In this document: piece after piece, positions 43,965 through 63,928 of the stretch
Numbering within the stretch: position 1 is the first letter of the stretch
Layout of the letters: the number at the start of each line of letters is the position of its first letter
Assembly (NCBI RefSeq): GCF_044324785.1
Contig: NZ_CP172127.1
DNA from: Escherichia coli
GTDB taxonomy: Bacteria; Pseudomonadota; Gammaproteobacteria; Enterobacterales; Enterobacteriaceae
Strand: one strand, 5' to 3'
DNA: 64,000 nt
Notes under the pieces: model-generated
Databases searched by the model: none
What the model was told of the DNA's origin: nothing
What the model saw: the letters and a program-made list of their open reading frames with translations, nothing else
Program-made: the position numbers and the translations under genes

Positions 43965-45471
43965 TTCTGTTTCACTGATGTCTATCTCCACGCGCGCAAA
44001 TAAGCTTGATGGAGTTGAGCAGGCATTTGTTGCTATGGCGACAGAGATGAATAAGGGGGTGCTGAAGAATCTCGGTCTGCTGACCCCTGAGCTGGAAGAG
44101 GCGAAAAGTGGCGATCTGATGATTGTCATTAAAGGTACCAGCGAGGAGGCGAACGAGCGGACGCTAATAGCGATTGATGAGCTGTTTGCGCATAAAGAAC
44201 AGGGAGGCCAGCACGAAGCACGCTATGCCACGATTGCCAGTGCGAAGAAGCATGCTCCAGAGAGTAATCTGGCGGTGATCTCTGTCAATGGCCTGTTTGC
44301 TGCTCGTGAAGCTCGTCAGGCACTACAAAATAACCTCAATGTTATGCTGTTTTCTGACAACGTCTCTCTTGAGGACGAGCTGGAACTCAAGCATCTGGCA
44401 CATGAAAAAGGGTTGTTGATGATGGGGCCTGATTGTGGAACCGCCATCATTAACGGCGCAGCGTTGTGTTTTGGCAATGCAGTGCGTCGCGGCAACATCG
44501 GAATCATTGGTGCCTCCGGTACGGGTAGCCAGGAGCTGAGCGTACGCATTCACGAATTTGGCGGCGGGATTTCCCAGCTGATTGGGACAGGTGGACGCGA
44601 TATGAGTGAAAAAATTGGCGGCCTGATGATGCTTGACGCGATTAGCATGCTGGAGGCCGATCCACAAACTGAGATCATTACGCTTATATCCAAACCTCCT
44701 GCACCAGCGGTAGCCCGTAAGGTGCTGGAACGTGCGCGCACCTGTCACAAGCCTGTGGTGGTGTGTTTCCTCGGACGTGAGTCCACCCCTGCGGATGAAG
44801 AAGGCCTACAGTTTGCCCGCGGTACTAAAGAGGCTGCCTTGAAAGCGGTACTGTTGACTGGTGTGAAAAAAGAGAGTCTGGATTTGCATCCGCTCAACTG
44901 GCAGCTGATTGAAGAGGTTCGCTCCCGTCTGACTCCACAACAAAAGTATATCCGTGGCCTGTTCTGTGGTGGCACGTTATGCGATGAAGCGATGTTTACT
45001 GCCATGGAAAAACTCTCGGATGTGTATAGCAATATTCACCCGAATCCGGCGTTCCGCCTTACAGATCTCAACCGTAGCGTGGCGCATACCTTCCTCGATT
45101 TCGGCGATGATTATTTTACCAACGGCAAACCACATCCGATGATCGATCCCACCAATCGCATTACCCGGCTCTTGCAGGAAGCACAGGATCCTGAAGTTGG
45201 CGTGATCGTGATGGACTTCATTCTTGGATTTGGATCACATGAAGATCCGGTTGGAGTGATGCTGGATACAATTGTTGAAGCCAAAGAAATTGCTGCCGCA
45301 GACGGTCGCCCGCTTGAGATCCTCGGCTATGTGCTGGGAACCGACCTTGATACACCGTCGCTGAAAAAACAGTGTCAGATGTTGACCGATGCCGGGGTTA
45401 TTTGGGCAAGCAGTAGCACCAACACCGGATTACTGGCACGTGAATTTATATTTAAAGGGGAGGAAGGCTGA
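43924..45471 (+). CDS. yahF: FdrA/YahF-like acyl-CoA synthetase (succinyl-CoA synthetase alpha-like fold)
   Basis: 515-aa ORF, CoA-binding/ligase-CoA-type glycine-rich motifs (GIIGASGTGSQE, GPDCGTAIING). Confidence 0.75.
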   Translation: MSIRIVVKKNTYFDSVSLMSISTRANKLDGVEQAFVAMATEMNKGVLKNLGLLTPELEEAKSGDLMIVIKGTSEEANERTLIAIDELFAHKEQGGQHEARYATIASAKKHAPESNLAVISVNGLFAAREARQALQNNLNVMLFSDNVSLEDELELKHLAHEKGLLMMGPDCGTAIINGAALCFGNAVRRGNIGIIGASGTGSQELSVRIHEFGGGISQLIGTGGRDMSEKIGGLMMLDAISMLEADPQTEIITLISKPPAPAVARKVLERARTCHKPVVVCFLGRESTPADEEGLQFARGTKEAALKAVLLTGVKKESLDLHPLNWQLIEEVRSRLTPQQKYIRGLFCGGTLCDEAMFTAMEKLSDVYSNIHPNPAFRLTDLNRSVAHTFLDFGDDYFTNGKPHPMIDPTNRITRLLQEAQDPEVGVIVMDFILGFGSHEDPVGVMLDTIVEAKEIAAADGRPLEILGYVLGTDLDTPSLKKQCQMLTDAGVIWASSSTNTGLLAREFIFKGEEG

Positions 45472-46889
45472 TGAGCCAGACACTGTTTAATCAGCCGCTG
45501 AACGTTATTAATGTCGGTATCGAAATGTTCAGCGATGACATGAAAAAGCAGAATGTACCGGTAACCCAACTTGACTGGACACCGCCAGGCCAAGGAAACA
45601 TACAAGTGGTAACGGCACTGGACGACATTGCCGCTTCACCACTGGCAGACAAAATTGCAGCTGCTAATCAGCTGGCGCTGGAACGCATTATCCAGTCGCA
45701 TCCTGTGCTAATTGGCTATGATCAGGCGATCAACGTCGTGCCGGGTATGACCCGTAACACTATCCTTCACGCCGGGCCGCCAATCCACTGGGAAAAAATG
45801 TGCGGCGCAATGAAGGGCGCAGTAACCGGGGCTCTGGTATTTGAAGGACTGGCGAAAGATCTGGATGATGCCGCCGAACTAGCTGCTTCAGGTGAAATCA
45901 TCTTCTCTCCGTGCCACGAACATGACTGTGTCGGCTCAATGGCGGGTGTCACGTCTGCATCGATGTTTATGCACATCGTCGAGAACAAAACCTATGGAAA
46001 CCGCGCATATACCAATATGAGCGAGCAGATGGCAAAGATCCTGCGTATGGGCGCTAACGACCAGAGCGTTATAGAGCGTCTTAACTGGATGCGAGATGTA
46101 CTGGGACCTATGTTGCGCGATGCTATGAAGCTGGCGGGCGAAATCGATCTGCACTTGATGTTAGCGCAGGCGCTGCATATGGGCGATGAGTGCCATAACC
46201 GCAACAACGCCGGGACGGCGCTGCTGATTCAGACGCTGACGCCGTGGATTATTCAGACTGGCTACCCTGTTGAGCAGCAGCGTGAGGTGTTCGAGTTTGT
46301 CCTCAGTAGTGATTACTTCTCAGGACCAACATGGATGGCAATGTGTAAAGCCGCAATGGACGCTGCGCACGGCATTGAATACAGCACCGTGGTGACAACG
46401 ATGGCACGCAATGGTGTTGAGTTCGGTCTTCGTATTAGCGGTTTGCCGGGCAAGTGGTTTACCGGTCCGGCGCAGCAGGTGATTGGGCCGATGTTTGCGG
46501 GCTATAAGCTAGAGGATTCCGGACGTGATATCGGTGATAGTGCAATTACCGAAACCTACGGCGTTGGCGGTTTCGCTATGGCGACGGCACCAGCTATTGT
46601 GTCACTGGTGGGCGGAACAGTTGAGGAAGCTATTGATTTCTCACGTAAAATGAGAGAAATCACTCTCGGAGAAAACCCCAACGTCACCATTCCCCTGCTT
46701 GGTTTTATGGGCGTACCGACCGCTATCGATATTACGCGTGTAGGCAGTACAGGCATTCTGCCGGTAATTAACACAGCCATTGCGCACAAAGACGCAGGGA
46801 TCGGCATGATCGGCGCAGGAATTGTTCACCCGCCGTTCACTTGTTTTGAAAAGGCGATCCTCAACTGGCGTGACCACTACTGCCAATAA
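45471..46889 (+). CDS. yahG: YahG/YlbE-like DUF1116-family protein
   Basis: 472-aa ORF translationally coupled to yahF. Confidence 0.7.
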   Translation: MSQTLFNQPLNVINVGIEMFSDDMKKQNVPVTQLDWTPPGQGNIQVVTALDDIAASPLADKIAAANQLALERIIQSHPVLIGYDQAINVVPGMTRNTILHAGPPIHWEKMCGAMKGAVTGALVFEGLAKDLDDAAELAASGEIIFSPCHEHDCVGSMAGVTSASMFMHIVENKTYGNRAYTNMSEQMAKILRMGANDQSVIERLNWMRDVLGPMLRDAMKLAGEIDLHLMLAQALHMGDECHNRNNAGTALLIQTLTPWIIQTGYPVEQQREVFEFVLSSDYFSGPTWMAMCKAAMDAAHGIEYSTVVTTMARNGVEFGLRISGLPGKWFTGPAQQVIGPMFAGYKLEDSGRDIGDSAITETYGVGGFAMATAPAIVSLVGGTVEEAIDFSRKMREITLGENPNVTIPLLGFMGVPTAIDITRVGSTGILPVINTAIAHKDAGIGMIGAGIVHPPFTCFEKAILNWRDHYCQ

Positions 46890-47001
46890 CAATAACCGGG
46901 GCTAACGCAGTTAGCCCCACAGTAGCGGAAAACGTTGTTTACCTTCAGGGCTGGGCGATCTCCATGATCGCAAACGATGCTTAACCTGTTAAGGAGATTC
47001 C

Positions 47002-48552
47002 ATGAACAGCATAAAACTAGAATGGAAACGTGGTGACTGGGCGGCTTACTTTGGACTGATGACCAACAATCTGACTAACCTGCTGACAATGATGGGTCTG
47101 CTAATTTTTGTCGTCGGAATCCCTACTGAAATTGTCTATGGACGCATTGCGCCTGCCTTTGGTCTTGCAGTGCTGGCGGCCAGTGTCTGCTACTCCTGGT
47201 TTGGTCTACAGATGGTGAAGAAAACCGGTCGTAGCGATGTAACGGCGCTGCCGTCTGGACCGAGCGCACCCTCAATCTTTACCGTGACATTCCTGGTGCT
47301 GATGCCGGTTTATCAGCAAACCAAAGATGCCAACTTTGCTATTCAGATAGGATTGGTGTGGTGCTTTGTCGAAGCGTTGATCCTGGTCGGTGGCTCCTTC
47401 CTGGGTGAGACTATCCGCAAGATGATCCCGCGTACAGTGCTGCTTTCTTGTCTGTCCGGACTGGGGTTATTACTGCTGGCAATGAACCCGATGCTGCAAG
47501 CGTTCGAAGCGCCGACAGTTTCTTTCATCGTCCTGTTATTGATCTTCATTAACTGGTTCGGTAAGAAGCCGATTTTTCCCCATATTCCTACCGGTTTGCT
47601 GTTGCTGATTGCTGGTACGTCCCTAGCGTGGATATCCGGTTTACAAAGCCCGGAAGACATTAAAGCGTCGATGTCTTCCTTCGGCTTCAACCCGCCGGAA
47701 ATTCATGTAAGGAGCTTCCTGCAAGGTTTGCCGCACGCTCTGCCATATCTGGCTTCTGCAGTTCCTTTGGGCCTGGCTAACTACATTTTTGACCTCGAGA
47801 ACATTGAAAGTGCGCACGCGGCTGGTGATGAATACAACACCCGTAAGGTCATGATGGCGAACGGCTTTGCCTCCATGCTCGGTTGCATGCTGGGTAATCC
47901 GTTCCCGGTAACCGTATATGTTGGGCATGCAGGCTGGAAAGCTATGGGCGCTAGTATCTGCTATACCCTCGCATCAGGCATCACTATGTTTCTGGTGCCA
48001 TTGTTTGGGTTGGGCGCGTTTATGCTCGCCATTATTCCCATGACTGCTATAGTGCCAATTCTGGTTTTTATCGGTGTGGTAACCGCCAATCAGGTGGTGC
48101 GAGAAACTCCTAAAGTCGAGGTTCCCGTCATTTTCATCTGTCTGTTCCCATGGGTCGCCAACTGGGCATTGACCATCGTTAACAGCGTGATGGGCGCAGC
48201 CGGAACATCCGCTGAGAAACTTGGTAGCGACCTGTTGCACAGCAAAGGCGTCTATTACGATGGACTGATGCATCTGGGAAGCGGTGCACCGCTGGCCAGC
48301 ATGCTGTGGGGATGCATTGCTATCTTTGCCATTATGAATAAGCCGCTGCGCGGGGCGATAGCTGCATCCTTTGGAGCACTGTTATCGCTGTTTGGCGTGA
48401 TTCACTCCCCAGCGGTTGGCTTTGCGGAAGGCAGCTCGATTGTGTTTGTTGTGGCCTACCTGATGATGCTTGCTATGTTTGCCCTCAAGCATGTTATTGA
48501 TAGCCGTGAAACAGTGGCTGCGTCTGAGCAGGAAGAGACTAAAACGACCTGA
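47002..48552 (+). CDS. Integral membrane transporter, 516 aa, family not assigned
   Basis: More than 10 predicted hydrophobic segments; located between yahG-like and yahI-like genes. Confidence 0.7.
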   Translation: MNSIKLEWKRGDWAAYFGLMTNNLTNLLTMMGLLIFVVGIPTEIVYGRIAPAFGLAVLAASVCYSWFGLQMVKKTGRSDVTALPSGPSAPSIFTVTFLVLMPVYQQTKDANFAIQIGLVWCFVEALILVGGSFLGETIRKMIPRTVLLSCLSGLGLLLLAMNPMLQAFEAPTVSFIVLLLIFINWFGKKPIFPHIPTGLLLLIAGTSLAWISGLQSPEDIKASMSSFGFNPPEIHVRSFLQGLPHALPYLASAVPLGLANYIFDLENIESAHAAGDEYNTRKVMMANGFASMLGCMLGNPFPVTVYVGHAGWKAMGASICYTLASGITMFLVPLFGLGAFMLAIIPMTAIVPILVFIGVVTANQVVRETPKVEVPVIFICLFPWVANWALTIVNSVMGAAGTSAEKLGSDLLHSKGVYYDGLMHLGSGAPLASMLWGCIAIFAIMNKPLRGAIAASFGALLSLFGVIHSPAVGFAEGSSIVFVVAYLMMLAMFALKHVIDSRETVAASEQEETKTT

Positions 48553-48578
48553 ATAGCCTGCAAACGGAAGATAATTCT

Positions 48579-49541
48579 ATGAAAGAACTTGTGGTCGTTG
48601 CCATTGGTGGCAACAGCATTATCAAAGATAACGCCAGCCAGTCGATTGAGCATCAGGCGGAGGCGGTGAAGGCCGTCGCCGATACGGTTCTGGAAATGCT
48701 GGCTTCCGATTACGACATTGTGCTGACCCACGGCAACGGGCCGCAGGTCGGTCTGGATTTACGCCGCGCGGAGATAGCCCACGAGCGCGAAGGGCTACCC
48801 TTAACGCCGCTGGCGAACTGTGTGGCGGATACGCAAGGCGGCATTGGCTATCTGATCCAGCAGGCGCTGAACAACCGGCTGGCGCCTCTCGGCGAGAAAA
48901 AAGCCGTCACCGTGGTGACTCAGGTGGAAGTGGATAAAAACGATCCGGGGTTTGTCCATCCCACCAAGCCCATCGGTGCATTCTTTAGTGAAAACCAGCG
49001 TGATGAACTACAAAAGGCAAACCCTGACTGGCGTTTTGTTGAAGATGCCGGACGGGGCTATCGCCGCGTGGTCGCCTCGCCGGAACCGAAACGTATTGTC
49101 GAAGCACCTGCCATTAAGACTCTGATCCAGCAAGGCTTTGTGGTGATTGGCGCGGGCGGCGGTGGCATTCCGGTGGTGCGTACTGACGCAGGGGATTACC
49201 AAAGCGTGGACGCGGTTATCGACAAAGATCTCTCTAGCGCGCTACTGGCTCGCGAAATTCACGCCGACATTCTGGTGATCACCACCGGCGTGGAAAAAGT
49301 GAGTATTCATTTTGGGAAACCCAACCAGCATGCACTGGATACAGTGGATGTCCTAACGATGGCCCGTTACATGCAGGAGGGTCACTTCCCGCCTGGGAGT
49401 ATGTTACCGAAGATTCTTGCCAGTCTGGAGTTCCTGGAACGTGGAGGTAAAAGAGTGATTATCACCACGCCTGAATGCCTGTCCGCGGCACTGCGTGGCG
49501 AAACAGGCACCCATATTATCCACTCCCAAGAGGAGACGTAA
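48579..49541 (+). CDS. yahI: Carbamate kinase-like protein (YahI/ArcC family)
   Basis: VVVAIGGNSI...LTHGNGPQVG...GGGGIPV amino-acid-kinase-family motifs. Confidence 0.8.
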   Translation: MKELVVVAIGGNSIIKDNASQSIEHQAEAVKAVADTVLEMLASDYDIVLTHGNGPQVGLDLRRAEIAHEREGLPLTPLANCVADTQGGIGYLIQQALNNRLAPLGEKKAVTVVTQVEVDKNDPGFVHPTKPIGAFFSENQRDELQKANPDWRFVEDAGRGYRRVVASPEPKRIVEAPAIKTLIQQGFVVIGAGGGGIPVVRTDAGDYQSVDAVIDKDLSSALLAREIHADILVITTGVEKVSIHFGKPNQHALDTVDVLTMARYMQEGHFPPGSMLPKILASLEFLERGGKRVIITTPECLSAALRGETGTHIIHSQEET

Positions 49542-50328
49542 ATTAAGGAAAGCGACCGCCGCCGTGAATTTTTAATGTTCATTGCAGATTATCGTGGGCT
49601 GGAAATGATAACGGTTGGGGAGTTATTGTTTAGTTGCTAAAACAGAACGATAACCAACCCCAACCGTTCTCAATTTCGAATACTATCTTTTCCATTTATC
49701 TCTGGATAGGCTTTGACGTCGTCCCTACTGAGTAAAATCCCCCTCATCATCCACCTAAAACCGATTGAAAACGGTCATTACTCTTGTGGCAAACAGGCTA
49801 AAGCCGTTCACGATGCTTCACTTCGCACCTTATCGTAATGAACAATACTGGTATTTCCAGTTCAGTTACGCCTACCCGTCTACCGCATTCTTTGCCCTAA
49901 CTGCGGCATAGTTCGGGATTATATCAGCTGGCTAAAGCCTTATGCTCATCAGACCACATGACTCATTGAGCATGTTGAGGCGTTACTCAAAATCTTGCCG
50001 ATTAAACATATTTCGTAATTTCTTACCCTGCACTAACATATCATCAATACTATCGACAAACGTCAGTTGCAAATAGAGGTCACAGGGTCTGATTGATGTA
50101 CTGTCAAGGCCGGGTCATGAAAGAGTTTGCCCTGTTCAAAGCTCATCGTTACGCACCGTCGTAGCCGATGCGGATACTCATCAATCCTCTGGATAGGTGA
50201 GGTGCGTAGTAGAGAAGCTCGGTCGTTTTTCGTTAATCTGAATCAGTACTGTCAACATATTCAAGTCGTTAATATGGATATGAATACCTCCTTTGACCTA
50301 GAGGTACAGATGCACTACCCCCCAAGCT

Positions 50329-50352
50329 GTCAACGACGGATGAAAAGTGGCT
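50329..50352. repeat. Solo IS21-family (IS100-like) terminal IR remnant
   Basis: TGTCAACGACGGATGAAAAGTGGC, matches the IR at 12747..12772 and 29826..29850. Confidence 0.4.
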
Positions 50353-50684
50353 CTTCCGCAACCTGGATGGAGATTTTCATGCCAGTGGACTCATGACCCT
50401 CTGCCTGAGTAGTTCAAATCCGGCTCGACCATACATCTGGCCTTTCAGCATTTTTAGCCAATTTACATGACTTTCGACCACCCCCCATTATTCCAGCGAC
50501 TGCTGATTGCCTCACATATAGCCGCAGCATCAGCTACCATCCTTGCAGCCACGCGCCGAAGTTACCACTTTCTCGTTGCTCTTTTAACCACTCCCTCCAT
50601 GGGTCCAGAAGTCCTCGCTCTGGAGGCCGGGTTGACATTTCAGGGAATGTTCCTGAACACACCCAGAGACTGACTGTCACACGT

Positions 50685-50741
50685 GATAAGCCTGTAATAC
50701 GGGATAAGCCTGTAATACGGGATAAGCCTGTAATACGGGAT
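50685..50741. repeat. Perfect 19-bp tandem repeat x3 (GATAAGCCTGTAATACGGG)
   Basis: Three exact head-to-tail copies; read through by the tail of the 50640..51539 ORF (IPYYRL x3). Confidence 0.9.
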
Positions 50742-50779
50742 ATTTCCCCTGAACCCACATCCCTTGTTATGTAGTGCCA

Positions 50780-51539
50780 TAACCTCTGTCCAACGCTGAT
50801 GCCGTTTTTGGCGGGTTTGCTGTTTAAGGCGTTCCGGACGACGGAGCGATGCTACAGGCACAGACAGTACTGGCTTAGGTGATTTCTTTGGTGACAACCC
50901 ACTGGCAACAAGACGTATCAGAGGCATCTGTCTGTACATCATTCGTTCAGGCGCATCGCCAATATTTTTTAGCAGGTGCCATCGATCAGCTATCTGTCTG
51001 GCCTGAGGTGCACCTTCACGTGCTGCTGTCGCATAGACTCCGCCACGGTCACGTGAGACAACCTGTATTTCCGGATATTTTCTGAACCAGGTCGCCAGCG
51101 TACTCTGATCGCAACCGGGAAGCAGGACGAGGGGACGGTGAGTATCAAGATTGACAATTAACGTGCCGTAATGGTGGCCCCGATGCCACGCCCACTCATC
51201 AATACCGACATGAGGCGCGCCCGACTGTTTCGTCTCCGGGGTATTAATAACCCTGCGAAGAAGAGTATCAGCACTGCAACGGAGCCCCACTGCCGTTGCT
51301 GCCTGTTTCCCGGCCTCACCTCCGGCTATTAATCCCAGTTGATGTTGTAAATTTTGTAACACCTGTGAAGAATGCTGGGAGTGAACCGGCGAAGGGGGCA
51401 AGCGACCCGGCAAAAATTTTACGTGAACAAGCCGGGTTACGGCAGTACCAGTGGCGGACGGAAAATACAAGCCATAGCGTCTGCCCTGAGCAGGGTAGAT
51501 GCTGTATCCGGCGCCGACGATAACTATGAACAGAGTCAC
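50780..51539 (-). pseudogene. ISL3-like transposase fragment, N-terminally truncated
   Basis: GIDEWAWHRGHHYGTLIVNLDTHRPLVLLPG...VVSRDRGGVYATAAREGAPQARQIADRWHLLKNIGDA resembles the ISL3-family catalytic region; no N-terminal zinc-finger/HTH part. Confidence 0.45.
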
Positions 51540-51716
51540 TACGCTTAAAGCATTCAGGACTTGTGCTGTTTTGCGTTTTCCGTGGAGATGGAGGGTTATA
51601 CCGTCAGAGCTAATAATTTGTCGACTGCATCTCCATCCGCAAGGTAACTGTAGAAGTGTCTGGTGATGCTGCCAACTTACTGATTTAGTGTATGATGGTG
51701 TTTTTGAGGTGCTCCA

Positions 51717-51992
51717 GTGGCTTCTGTTTCTATCAGCTGTCCCTCCTGTTCAGCTACTGACGGGGTGGTGCGTAACGGCAAAAGCACCGCCGGACATCAG
51801 CGCTATCTCTGCTCTCACTGCCGTAAAACATGGCAACTGCAGTTCACTTACACCGCTTCTCAACCCGGTACGCACCAGAAAATCATTGATATGGCCATGA
51901 ATGGCGTTGGATGCCGGGCAACTGCCCGCATTATGGGCGTTGGCCTCAACACGATTTTACGTCACTTAAAAAACTCAGGCCGCAGTCGGTAA
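51717..51992 (+). CDS. insA: IS1 InsA
   Basis: [88 protein letters not shown]. Confidence 0.9.
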
Positions 51993-52414
51993 CCTCGCGC
52001 ATACAGCCGGGCAGTGACGTCATCGTCTGCGCGGAAATGGACGAACAGTGGGGCTATGTCGGGGCTAAATCGCGCCAGCGCTGGCTGTTTTACGCGTATG
52101 ACAGTCTCCGGAAGACGGTTGTTGCGCACGTATTCGGTGAACGCACTATGGCGACGCTGGGGCGTCTTATGAGCCTGCTGTCACCCTTTGACGTGGTGAT
52201 ATGGATGACGGATGGCTGGCCGCTGTATGAATCCCGCCTGAAGGGAAAGCTGCACGTAATCAGCAAGCGATATACGCAGCGAATTGAGCGGCATAACCTG
52301 AATCTGAGGCAGCACCTGGCACGGCTGGGACGGAAGTCGCTGTCGTTTTCAAAATCGGTGGAGCTGCATGACAAAGTCATCAGGCATTATCTGAACATAA
52401 AACACTATCAATAA
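51911..52414 (+). CDS. insB: IS1 InsB frame (expressed as an InsAB fusion by frameshifting)
   Basis: ...[51 protein letters not shown]... Confidence 0.9.
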
Positions 52415-52425
52415 GTTGGAGTCAT

Positions 52426-52578
52426 TACCGTGTTCCCGACAGACGACTCGGTGAAAAAAGTGGTGTGGCTGGCAATCCAGTCTGCGTCCCAGAAATGGAC
52501 GATGCCGTTGAAGGACTGGCGAATGGCAATGAGCCGCTTTATTATCGAGTTCGGTGACCGCCTGGACGGTCACTTCTG
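52426..52578 (+). pseudogene. IS256-family transposase C-terminal fragment (last about 50 aa), abutting the IS1 right end
   Basis: VFPTDDSVKKVVWLAIQSASQKWTMPLKDWRMAMSRFIIEFGDRLDGHF-stop. Confidence 0.75.
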
Positions 52579-52848
52579 AGAAAAGGCATTTACACAGAAT
52601 CCTAAACAGGCTCATTCAGACAGCTTTTTATTTCACTATGGCTATCCCAGAACAATCAGTACAAATAATAAAAGACATATCACAGCAACACTCCACACTG
52701 ACAGCGCAAAAATAAATGCCGCCTTTGTTATCTTCATATACAAGCAACCTGTCCTGATAATCACCAGCTCATGTTTTATTCTTAACCATTCGTCACAAAT
52801 ACAACAAAAAATAACAGCAGCAGCACCGATATCACAATATAAGATACA

Positions 52849-53304
52849 TTATTCAACACCTGAATCCCCCGCCGCTTCTCTCCCCTTTATAAAACGCCCC
52901 TTCCGGAATCCAGACCGCTGCAGTGCACGACGAAGATGACCGTATACCGTCTTGTCATTCTGCCCCGTCTCTTCTGTAATCTCCGCAATACTTAAACCTC
53001 TGTAATACCGGTTCAGTAACGCTCTGCGCTCTTCCAGCGTCAACACACCTCCGGCCGCTCTCAGATTCAGCATCGACTTATTCAGAATACAGCAGGCCTC
53101 TCCGGTAAAAAGAATACGAACAATATCTGTATACTCATCATCACAGAATACAAAATAATATCTGAATGACCTGCCTGACTGCACCCTTCTTCTGTCTGAT
53201 ATGGCATCTTCTATATATCTGATTCGACTGCTTACGGTTCCAAATACCTCTCGCAGGGCTTTTTCAAAATAAATATCTCTCGTCGCCAGGATTATATCCA
53301 GCAT
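52849..53304 (-). CDS. LuxR/FixJ-type HTH transcriptional regulator
   Basis: 151-aa ORF; C-terminal LTLEERRALLNRYYRGLSIAEITEETGQNDKTVYGHLRRA resembles a LuxR-type HTH; N-terminal domain unassigned. Confidence 0.55.
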   Translation of the reverse strand: MLDIILATRDIYFEKALREVFGTVSSRIRYIEDAISDRRRVQSGRSFRYYFVFCDDEYTDIVRILFTGEACCILNKSMLNLRAAGGVLTLEERRALLNRYYRGLSIAEITEETGQNDKTVYGHLRRALQRSGFRKGRFIKGREAAGDSGVE

Positions 53305-53365: not shown

Positions 53366-54631
53366 TCAGAACTCAAAATTCACACCAGCATTCCACGATG
53401 CGGATGACCCACCTGCAGCAACTGCAACTTTTCCTGCCACATTCTCTGTGAAACGGTAGCCCACGCCCACCGCAATGGCCTGCTCATCACGGTAACCACC
53501 AACGGCTGCTGTCGCGTTAAATTTTCCAACACTGTATGGCTGGAAAAGACCGGCCAGTGCCGCGCTCTGGGCTGCACTCTCCCTTAACTCCTTCCGGTTC
53601 TCTTTAATCTGCTCCTGCATATTATTCATTCTCTCTGTCGCCATCTTCTGCCAGGCTTCCGTCAAATCCAGACGATGACTGTTATTCCTTATCGCTGCTG
53701 TATTTGAGGCTATTGCTGCATCCGTCTGCGCCCTGTTCTTCACAAGCACATCGCTGAGATGTTCTGCCTGGCTTTTCGCTTCTTTACGGGCATCCCGTAC
53801 ACTTTTATCTGTATAAGCCCGGGAAACCTGAACTGTTTCATCCGCTTTTTCTTTTATTTCATCCTGAAGAGCAAGAGAAGATGCATCCGTATACGCCACC
53901 GCTGCCGATGTGCCTGCAATAATATCCCTGCTGAGTTCATCACGTACTGCTGTAACCTGACTGTCAGTATGAGCACGGGCATCTCTGTATACACCGCCTA
54001 TCTCACCGCGCAGGGCATCCCCCGACACCCGTACAGCATCTGCAATGGCGTTGTCCATCTGTCCTTTTGTGGCCGCATCACTATCCTTAACACCATCTGA
54101 AACATTTATAATCCGGCGGGTTTCCGGTGCTCCTTTGACACTCTCTCCATATCCCTCAGGCCCGGCACCAACAGATACCACGTTATTTTCTCCCGACACC
54201 TGTGAGCCATGGCCCAGAGCTACAGAACTGGTAGAATCCTGCACAGATGAAAACGCACCAATTGCCGAGCTCTGACGAGAAGAAATAAGTGACGCTTCTT
54301 TTCCTGCAACAGTCCCCCATTCAGAGTCAGCAATAAGTGCATCATGCCCCAGACTCACACTTCCCGGAGAGTTCACAACACCAGAATTATTCCCCAAAAG
54401 CACAGTCCTGTTTGAGTCTAATAAAAAAGAATCATCACCAATCAACCATACATTTCTTACTTTATCAATCGAACGGCCAGCTACTGATTCTCCAACAAGA
54501 AAGCTATTATCTTCGCCAGGTTCAATCGGTCCGATTAAAATATCCTGAGCCTGAGCCTGAGCCGAGAGCAGCAGGGCCACACTCACTGCCAGCGCGCTTT
54601 TCTTTAAAAAAGCATCACGTCTTTTAAGCAT
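53366..54631 (-). CDS. Trimeric autotransporter adhesin, YadA/Eib-like
   Basis: Signal peptide [28 protein letters not shown]; coiled-coil stalk; C-terminal YadA-type anchor ([42 protein letters not shown]...GVNFEF); the track ORF starts 54 bp earlier. Confidence 0.8.
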
Positions 54632-55828
54632 TCTGTTATTCTCCTGTATTATTACTTCACCAGCCAGAACGGTAGTGCGGAGCAAAAATACAGTGATAAG
54701 AATCCTCTTTTATTAATTTAATAATGCCAGGAATATTATTGTGTATAATATGCGCCCTCAATTTAAGCAGCAGAAAAGCAATGACGAGAAAATCATTAAA
54801 ATACATAAAGATAAAACATCATAACTATAATTATAATAAGCGCGCTTATTTTAGCATCTGAACATTTAAAGTACTGCTATCACAAAACAATAAAAATCCT
54901 GGGTAATATCTCTGATGATTGAATGAGAAATTCACGATGTCTGGTGAGAATTCTGTTCAAAACGAGGAATGCAGACATACATGTGGCAGGCATGGACTTC
55001 CACCGATTTAACTTTTTTCCTTCCTTGTATTTACACATCACACATTTTGCGCTACAAAAATTTCACGTGGCACGCACCACGTGATCCGTAGAAAAGCCTC
55101 TTGTTACGAATTTCGTAAACCGCACGTCTGTCTGGTCGTGCGGATTTTTTATCCGTCAACTTCACATGAAACCGCCAGATCACTGTTTCCGGATTCAGAC
55201 ATCAGGCATATTATCATCCACAATGTCGTGAACAAGATCACACTTTTGCAATTCCTTTATTGATCGAAAGCAGTTAATCACGGAAATTAATTACCGGAGT
55301 GAAAGCATTACTGCATCGTAAATATCTACCATTTTTGACTACACCCTCTGACAGAATTTTCAGAGGGTTTTTTATCAGTTTCACCATCCAACCCTGTACG
55401 CCAGAATGGTTTCACTGTCACTCAGTTCTGCTATTGCCTTTTTCATCTCCCTTTACCTTACGTTCTGCCAGAGTCTGAGCCATTTGAACAGGAGGTTATC
55501 ATTGATATCGTGTTCCCGGGCAATACGGGCAACAGAGGCTCCTGGTTGCAAAACCAGTTTAACCATTTGAAGTTTAACTCATTTGAAAATGATCTGCGGG
55601 GTTCTGCGGATAATGTTTTTGCTCCATAACAGGCGCCCACCAGTTTGAAAAGGTGGGCACCTACGTTACCAATACTGGCTTAATGGATACATACGGCGGT
55701 CGGTTCTTACGGTAAAACGACACAACCAAACGCTTCTTATCCTGCAATGAACTGCTTTATTACCGAGTTTAGTGACCGCACAGACACTCACTTTTAAGAA
55801 AAACAGAATGGTAAACAAACTCCATGAA

Positions 55829-61319: not shown

Positions 61320-61500
61320 TAATGAAAACACTTATAGGGCTGTTTATGAAAACACGTGTATGTCTGGTAAAACACTTAGTAGAAAATACGTGTATAACAC
61401 TTACTGAAATGCTTAGTAAAAATACTTAGTAAAATATGTGTAGAATTATCTATTTAAAAAGATATGTATATAACACTTAATAAAAACATGTGTATATAGT
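61320..61500. repeat. Cluster of short direct repeats and palindromes (iteron-like)
   Basis: AACACTTA(G/C)T at about 61323, 61367, 61403, 61468; CTTAGTAAAA at 61371, 61410, 61423; palindromes ACACGTGT (61349), ATACGTGTAT (61385), ACATGT (61485). Confidence 0.4.
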
Positions 61501-62930: not shown

Positions 62931-63928
62931 CTTTCACTACTTCCACTCCTGGCAGTTTTCCTCTTTTTGTAGTGTCTCCCGGCTGCAGGCATCAGGTACT
63001 TTTCCGTCATTTCGTTGCAGAACTCTTCAATGTAGTTAATCAGCTTCTGGTGTGCTTTCACCTTTTCTTCCCCGGGGGACGCTTTCAGATAAATGTCCTC
63101 CTTTTCCACAAGTGTATTTATAAACTCTCCCGGACATCCCTGGTTATAAAGCAACGTGAAAAACAACACATTCCCCAGTCTCTCCAGTAACTGCGATTTA
63201 ACCCTGTATTGTTGTTTGCTGAGGATTGATTGTTTTATAAAGCTTAGTCTTGTTAAAAGTTGTTCAAATCCCGGTTCCAGTTTAAAAACAGATTTTAATA
63301 CCAGGGACTGATACTCCTGATAAAAAAGTTCAAACGTCGGGGATGCAGACTGACGAACAGATTTGGCTACAACCCATGGACTAAATCCCATGATTGGGAT
63401 TTCCTTCGCTCCCTCCAGCGCACTCAGAGGTAGTCCAGCAATCCATGCGTCCAGCTTAGCCGAATCAATATCCCCGCTCAAAACCTCATACAAACTGCCC
63501 GTGAACGGTTGAGTCGGTTTTTTTGTTGTTTTACCTTCTGATTGCCTGAATCCATCCACTTTTCTCCGGATATTACGCGGAATCAGCATAAAAGGCGGGA
63601 CATTAAGTGATAAACGTTTACCCGTCATACGATACCAGTGGCCCACCTCAACCTTAATCCGTGTATCTGGCCTTGTATCTGGCCTTGTATCTGGCCTTAG
63701 CTCAAGTGCTATTATGTTAAGCAGGTACAGATAACGCACCGTATAACAGTCAAAATGTTTCTCCGGATCAAACGGCTCTGATCGTTCTCTGCACACAAGT
63801 CCGCTGCGCTTCAGTATTCGCTGGGTATCTTTCCAGGCCTTACTCTGAAGAATGGTGGTAACTCTGGCTTTATTAGCAATCTCACGCAGCGCATCACTTT
63901 GTTGTGCCGTCATCTCTTCCCTCCACAC
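62927..63928 (-). CDS. Hypothetical protein, 333 aa, with an internal RPDT tandem repeat
   Basis: Long ORF convergent with and overlapping the previous gene by 4 bp; contains a 12-bp x3 DNA tandem repeat encoding RPDTRPDTRPDTR. Confidence 0.5.
   Translation of the reverse strand: MWREEMTAQQSDALREIANKARVTTILQSKAWKDTQRILKRSGLVCRERSEPFDPEKHFDCYTVRYLYLLNIIALELRPDTRPDTRPDTRIKVEVGHWYRMTGKRLSLNVPPFMLIPRNIRRKVDGFRQSEGKTTKKPTQPFTGSLYEVLSGDIDSAKLDAWIAGLPLSALEGAKEIPIMGFSPWVVAKSVRQSASPTFELFYQEYQSLVLKSVFKLEPGFEQLLTRLSFIKQSILSKQQYRVKSQLLERLGNVLFFTLLYNQGCPGEFINTLVEKEDIYLKASPGEEKVKAHQKLINYIEEFCNEMTEKYLMPAAGRHYKKRKTARSGSSES
63663..63698. repeat. 12-bp tandem repeat x3 (GTATCTGGCCTT) inside the 62927..63928 ORF
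   Basis: Three exact head-to-tail copies. Confidence 0.9.

Follow-up and report, generated by a model that had tools for sequence, protein, structure and literature searches.

A variable 18-bp tandem array, probably neutral and generated by slippage, in a degenerate ISEc38-related transposase gene of Escherichia coli

Does a perfect short tandem repeat found near the end of a transposase reading frame belong to the mobile element, to a protein, or to neither? The repeat in question stands out in the window (the whole 64,000-nucleotide stretch of E. coli DNA that we analyzed). The initial annotation read it as a 19-bp unit in three exact tandem copies at 50685-50741; the repeat is indeed there, but its period is 18. 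The 18-bp unit GATAAGCCTGTAATACGG (CCGTATTACAGGCTTATC on the coding, minus strand) begins at 50685, 50703, and 50721, GATA follows directly after the third copy, and period-18 identity is perfect across 50685 to 50742 (3.2 copies, 58 bp). The 19-mer reading is one base long because its final G already opens the next unit; the earlier 57-bp coordinates still fit, since 57 = 3 × 18 + 3. The array is genuine and lies far beyond chance: Tandem Repeats Finder (TRF) scored it as the top array of the 64-kb window (period 18, 3.4 copies, score 117), and perfect tandem self-matches in the window reach a maximum of 40 nt (period 18, starting at 50685), compared with ≤14 nt in 100 shuffles of the same sequence. 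A second perfect tandem repeat lies near the window end at 63662-63698 (TGTATCTGGCCT × 3.1; TRF score 74), with weaker TRF arrays at 61369-61434 (13 bp × 5.2) and 55556-55587 (15 bp × 2.1).

The array sits within a degenerate insertion sequence, ~360 bp in from the 50328 end. The relevant features are as follows.

50114 to 50321, plus strand: fragment of a different ISL3-like transposase (DDE_Tnp_ISL3, E 1.3e-4; annotated as a partial transposase in pAPEC3701)
50328 to 51661, minus strand: degenerate ISEc38-related (ISL3 family) insertion sequence (alignment to two ISEc38-type copies, blastx)
50328 to 50371, minus strand: surviving terminal inverted repeat, TGTCAACGACGGATGAAAAGTGGCTCTTCCGCAACCTGGATGGA, which is where the element really ends, at a distance of 314 bp from the array (alignment)
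50563 to 50564, minus strand: internal deletion junction, where ~350 bp of ISEc38 (codons ~367 to 479 of 539) is missing (alignment, blastx)
50685 to 50742, minus strand: tandem array, three perfect copies of the unit plus GATA (direct sequence reading, TRF, shuffles)
50746 to 50749, minus strand: +1 frameshift, a run of CCCC (coding-strand GGGG) in place of the three-base run, GGG, of ISEc38-type copies (alignment, frame analysis)
51662 to 52429, plus strand: IS1, 768 bp (alignment, annotation)

Assignment to the ISL3 family rests on the DDE_Tnp_ISL3 domain (Pfam PF01610), the first half of which is found in the long minus-strand ORF (E 4e-17). As for the other family hallmarks, one inverted repeat is left (50328-50371), the other having been replaced by IS1 from 51662, and the intact 539-aa reading frame is gone. 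With one inverted repeat only, this is a relic and not a complete element. Insertion of IS1 at 51662 removed the first 8 to 9 codons together with the left inverted repeat. In blastx comparisons to intact proteins, the relic falls into five pieces in three frames, with codons 1 to 9 and ~367 to 479 absent. PGAP labels the equivalent of 50377 to 51617 (minus strand) "ISL3 family transposase, frameshifted" and calls a frameshifted pseudogene in every genome inspected. To judge from its sequence, then, the ISEc38-related element at 50328-51661 is a dead relic. The initial annotation placed the array at the tail of an ISL3-like transposase fragment; this holds for the minus-strand ORF (50640 to 51539), but transposase-derived sequence runs ~360 bp beyond it, to 50328.

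Like ISEc38, to which it shows ~92 to 93% nucleotide identity over its length, the relic has the same 44-bp inverted repeat (at its surviving end) and the domain order Zn ribbon, split DDE_Tnp_ISL3, and internal helix-turn-helix. It differs from ISEc38 in having lost its left end and start codon to IS1, in its several frameshifts and ~350-bp deletion, and in carrying the unit three times rather than once. At ~7 to 8% divergence, it is a distinct variant rather than ISEc38 itself.

Among full-length elements, the relic's nearest relatives are those of the ISEc38 type. These measure ~1,765 bp, end in 44-bp terminal inverted repeats (the two ends of one full-length reference, L004, agree at 42 of 44 positions), and encode a 539-aa transposase; a repaired ISEc38 reference scored 373.9 bits against NCBIfam transpos_ISL3 and E 1.3e-34 against Pfam. 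In ISEc38-type copies the unit occurs once, mid-gene and near neither end, and is read in the context HNKGCSFREISRITGLSRVTVSRWVRSGTFPE. The array aligns to codons 315 to 323 of the 539-aa protein: in the ISEc38-type frame the 18 bp encode ITGLSR, codons 318 to 323, which is part of a conserved helix-turn-helix with the motif REISRITGLSRVTVSRW. Many helix-turn-helix families hit this stretch at a subthreshold level (HTH_17, E 2.9e-4), and at residues 303 to 398 there is a match to the DNA-binding N-terminal portion of IS21 transposases (NCBIfam transpos_IS21, E 5e-16). The DDE domain of the ISEc38 family is itself split, with Pfam profile positions 1 to 135 at residues 160 to 295 and the remainder only near the C terminus; the split is due to an insert of ~135 to 200 aa, the first part of which matches the N-terminal helix-turn-helix of IS21 (IstA). 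Insert residues 303 to 398 of the 539-aa reference correspond to window positions ~50552 to 50760 on the minus strand. Among the best 120 homologues from a search of 5.8 billion proteins (101 of them exactly 539 aa; hosts E. coli, E. albertii, Salmonella, Enterobacter, and Citrobacter), 115 contain exactly one ITGLSR, within REISRITGLSRVTVSRW, and none has a tandem hexapeptide. Thus, the single unit is conserved coding sequence, and its repetition is peculiar to the relic.

The initial annotation expected that copy number may vary, and it does: we found one, two, and three copies in otherwise near-identical relics across related genomes. A search of 5,426 complete E. coli genomes with the pure 58-nt array identified ≥2 copies in 108 records (three copies in 4, two copies in 104), while ~84 records were matched best by a 48-nt one-copy probe; these allele counts refer to the relic-type unit, as tandem copies of the unit in its diverged ISEc38-type form would escape megablast at the word size used. 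Alleles of more than three copies were found neither in the complete E. coli genomes nor in PLSDB plasmids. One-copy arrays are mostly chromosomal, and two-copy arrays are mostly on ColV-type plasmids (~97 plasmid and 7 chromosomal two-copy arrays, approximate numbers from place counts). In PLSDB, 61 conjugative plasmids (57 E. coli, 4 Klebsiella) have two copies, including NC_007675 (184,501 bp), and none has three. The relic occurs both on ColV-type plasmids and on E. coli chromosomes, many of the latter from poultry; its locus is present in ~3% of complete E. coli genomes.

Reading the arrays back from individual records gave three copies in strain 135, TUM9803, and two separate GF60 loci, two copies in pAPEC-O2-211A-ColV and the strain 104 chromosome, and one copy in the AR_0085 chromosome and plasmid pAPEC3701; the flanks are identical across these relics, whether they carry one, two, or three copies. 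The window itself is chromosomal E. coli DNA; in it, 601 bases around the array are 100% identical to strains 135, TUM9803, and Br_112_kylling, and 1,601 bases are 100% identical to Br_112_kylling. All three alleles occur at one chromosomal locus, in the order fdrA, DUF1116/YlbE, permease, carbamate kinase, relic, IS1: AR_0085 has one copy there, strain 104 two, and strains 135, TUM9803, and GF60 three. The array is thus a variable-number tandem repeat (VNTR) in the usual meaning of the term, with head-to-tail copies of one unit whose number varies at the same locus.

When did the array expand, and how? We aligned seven relics with one, two, or three copies (the window relic, L001 to L003, and L006 to L008). 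The +1 frameshift and the ~350-bp deletion are present in all seven, whatever the copy number, so the gene was dead before the array expanded; the N-terminal truncation by IS1 is present in six and absent from one GF60 relic (L008). The one-copy allele has GATA-N14-GATA, a 4-nt direct repeat that brackets the unit, where ISEc38-type copies have GACA...GATA; the difference reflects synonymous Leu/Ser codon changes. Bracketing by such a 4-nt direct repeat is a classic substrate for slipped-strand duplication, and tandem repeats are known to be unstable by RecA-independent routes. From this anatomy and from general knowledge of such repeats, we infer slippage as the mechanism. The starting point would be a one-copy ancestor with GATA-N14-GATA in the dead transposase gene; if, in replication, the nascent strand misaligned from one GATA to the other, 18 bp would be duplicated; and with two perfect copies in place, units could be gained or lost through more slippage or through unequal exchange, giving the one-, two-, and three-copy alleles now seen on E. 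coli chromosomes and ColV-type plasmids. As the gene was already dead, the array would have no coding or regulatory role. We consider it very probable that the 18-bp triplication is neutral, lies in an already inactivated ISEc38-type transposase gene, and arose by slippage.

The account that survives best beside this one attributes the distribution of copy numbers to gene conversion between plasmid and chromosomal relics, or to selection, rather than to neutral drift; we regard it as unlikely, though worth setting out. By three single-nucleotide polymorphisms (SNPs) 150 to 225 bp from the array, the relics fall into two backgrounds, "chromosomal" (A/C/A) and "plasmid" (G/-/G), each of which occurs with one, two, and three copies. 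Copy number must therefore have changed more than once, or have moved between paralogous relics by recombination. GF60 carries two relics, one beside iucA (L008) and one at the fdrA locus (L009); that both have three copies fits recombination or gene conversion between paralogous relics. Furthermore, nearly all of the ~100 ColV-type plasmids, from many hosts and countries, have two copies, which shows that change is infrequent. Part of the copy-number pattern could stem from transfer or gene conversion and not from repeated slippage. The L008 relic, which is not cut by IS1, also matches neither the window type nor ISEc38 in the third of its sequence corresponding to the transposase 5′ region (above ~51337 in window coordinates); it is a mosaic, and this hints that ISL3 variants have recombined with each other.

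Neutrality of the array would fail if it had a selected noncoding role, as an array of binding sites, a promoter, or a small RNA, with its copy-number changes being adaptive. In poultry-associated strains, ColV-type plasmids commonly carry multicopy alleles, and both GF60 relics have three copies, as such a role might lead one to expect; however, the plasmid pattern is more simply explained as descent from one plasmid ancestor, and the array lies within a relic where neither strand has a functional gene downstream. No promoter-like site was found inside the array, an Rfam scan of 49500-52500 at E ≤ 1 gave zero matches, and single-strand folding of the array was no different from that of shuffles (z = −1.1). 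The promoter-like site (50462-50491) and both terminator-like sites (50794-50814) that we did find lie outside the array, and their number is about at chance level. Nor is any intact gene placed so as to be affected by the array. A literature search for the unit sequence in either orientation did not find it, a search for tandem repeats in ISL3 elements or ColV plasmids gave nothing relevant, and ISEc38 appears in the literature searched in mobile-element inventories only. These analyses thus gave no sign of a function for the array, and we judge a selected role to be very improbable; the array is probably neutral.

That the array instead encodes a genuine hexapeptide repeat (IPYYRL or ITGLSR × 3) in an expressed protein is barely credible. 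The unit length is a multiple of three, and a 299-codon minus-strand ORF (50640 to 51539) spans the array and reads it as IPYYRL × 3, but this ORF is a patchwork of frames, drawn from a gene that has lost its start, changed frame at least four times, and undergone a ~113-codon deletion. The IPYYRL reading itself arises because the +1 shift at 50746-50749, 4 nt ahead of the array in the direction of translation, puts the upstream frame out of register. Three copies of ITGLSR would disrupt the helix-turn-helix, the gene is a PGAP frameshifted pseudogene in all genomes inspected, and the duplication occurs in none of the 120 homologues. Frame analysis and these homologues rule out a coding repeat; the doubt of the initial annotation that IPYYRL × 3 is genuine protein was well placed, as it is an out-of-frame reading past a frameshift in a pseudogene.

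The two remaining possibilities carry next to no weight. The initial annotation suggested that the repeat may mark an element end, for example, as subterminal repeats or transposase binding sites; the array does lie at the end of the fragment's longest ORF, but alignment of the relic to full-length ISEc38-type copies and location of the 44-bp inverted repeats rule this out, as the real inverted repeat is 314 bp away at 50328-50371, the other end was lost to IS1 at 51662, and full-length elements contain a single unit, placed mid-gene. Assemblers do occasionally miscount short perfect repeats, yet there is a negligible chance that the three copies are an assembly or sequencing artifact, given that the same three-copy array occurs at five loci in four independently sequenced complete genomes (Br_112_kylling is among the carriers), that the two-copy allele is found in >100 records, and that a 58-bp array is shorter than any sequencing read.

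Compared with known repeat systems, the array resembles the VNTR or minisatellite loci used in multilocus VNTR analysis (MLVA), which likewise consist of perfect head-to-tail short units whose copy number varies between strains. Unlike those loci, it has just three alleles (one to three copies) and lies in a mobile, multicopy relic on plasmids and chromosomes; because that relic is found in ~3% of complete E. coli genomes and on both replicon types, the link between allele and strain is loose. The initial annotation suggested that the array may be useful for strain typing: it does vary, but its value is small, with three alleles and a two-copy allele that is common to ~100 ColV-type plasmids. 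The array also shares with contingency loci a probable repeat-mediated slippage that alters tract length within an ORF-like region. It differs from them in that its 18-bp unit is divisible by three, its host gene is inactive, and no regulated gene is attached; as 18 bp is a multiple of three, copy changes leave the frame unswitched, and the array switches neither the frame nor the promoter of a functional gene, as a phase-variable contingency locus does.

The surroundings of the relic are rich in mobile DNA: at least four different insertion sequences have made a graveyard of 50100-52600. The fragment at 50114-50321 is flanking context; it runs in the opposite orientation just beyond the inverted repeat of the relic, and this position beside the relic end suggests a nested insertion. 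The fragment is also the site of an IS2 insertion in strain 104, with a 5-base overlap in the alignment. At the other side, a C-terminal fragment of an IS256-family transposase (52430-52579, plus strand) abuts the right end of IS1. The block from fdrA through YlbE/DUF1116, permease, carbamate kinase, and ISL3 relic to IS1 (window 44000-52430) is 99.8% identical on ~125-kb plasmids (strain 135, NZ_CP080263; TUM1886, NZ_CP128971) and on chromosomes, arguing that the metabolic cluster and the relic move together between replicons. Farther along, a YadA-like trimeric autotransporter gene (53366-54685, minus strand) lies beside a small sigma-factor-like helix-turn-helix gene (52849-53304); the annotated length of this adhesin gene differs between strains (1,548, 1,674, and 1,746 nt), and the gene may itself be length variable.

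What the array means for E. coli is modest. It is probably an ordinary, neutral minisatellite or small VNTR (one to three copies of 18 bp) produced by slippage in a dead insertion sequence, and as another such minisatellite in dead mobile DNA it carries little biological weight; no protein should be annotated from the long ORF with IPYYRL × 3. The site may have become prone to duplication when a synonymous change gave rise to a 4-nt direct repeat. The one-, two-, or three-copy state is a cheap marker: most ColV-type plasmid copies have two, most chromosomal copies one, and a small poultry-associated group three. If gene conversion between plasmid and chromosomal relics, or selection, did spread the copy number, the array would trace, on a fine scale, exchange between plasmids and chromosomes in poultry-associated E. 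coli.
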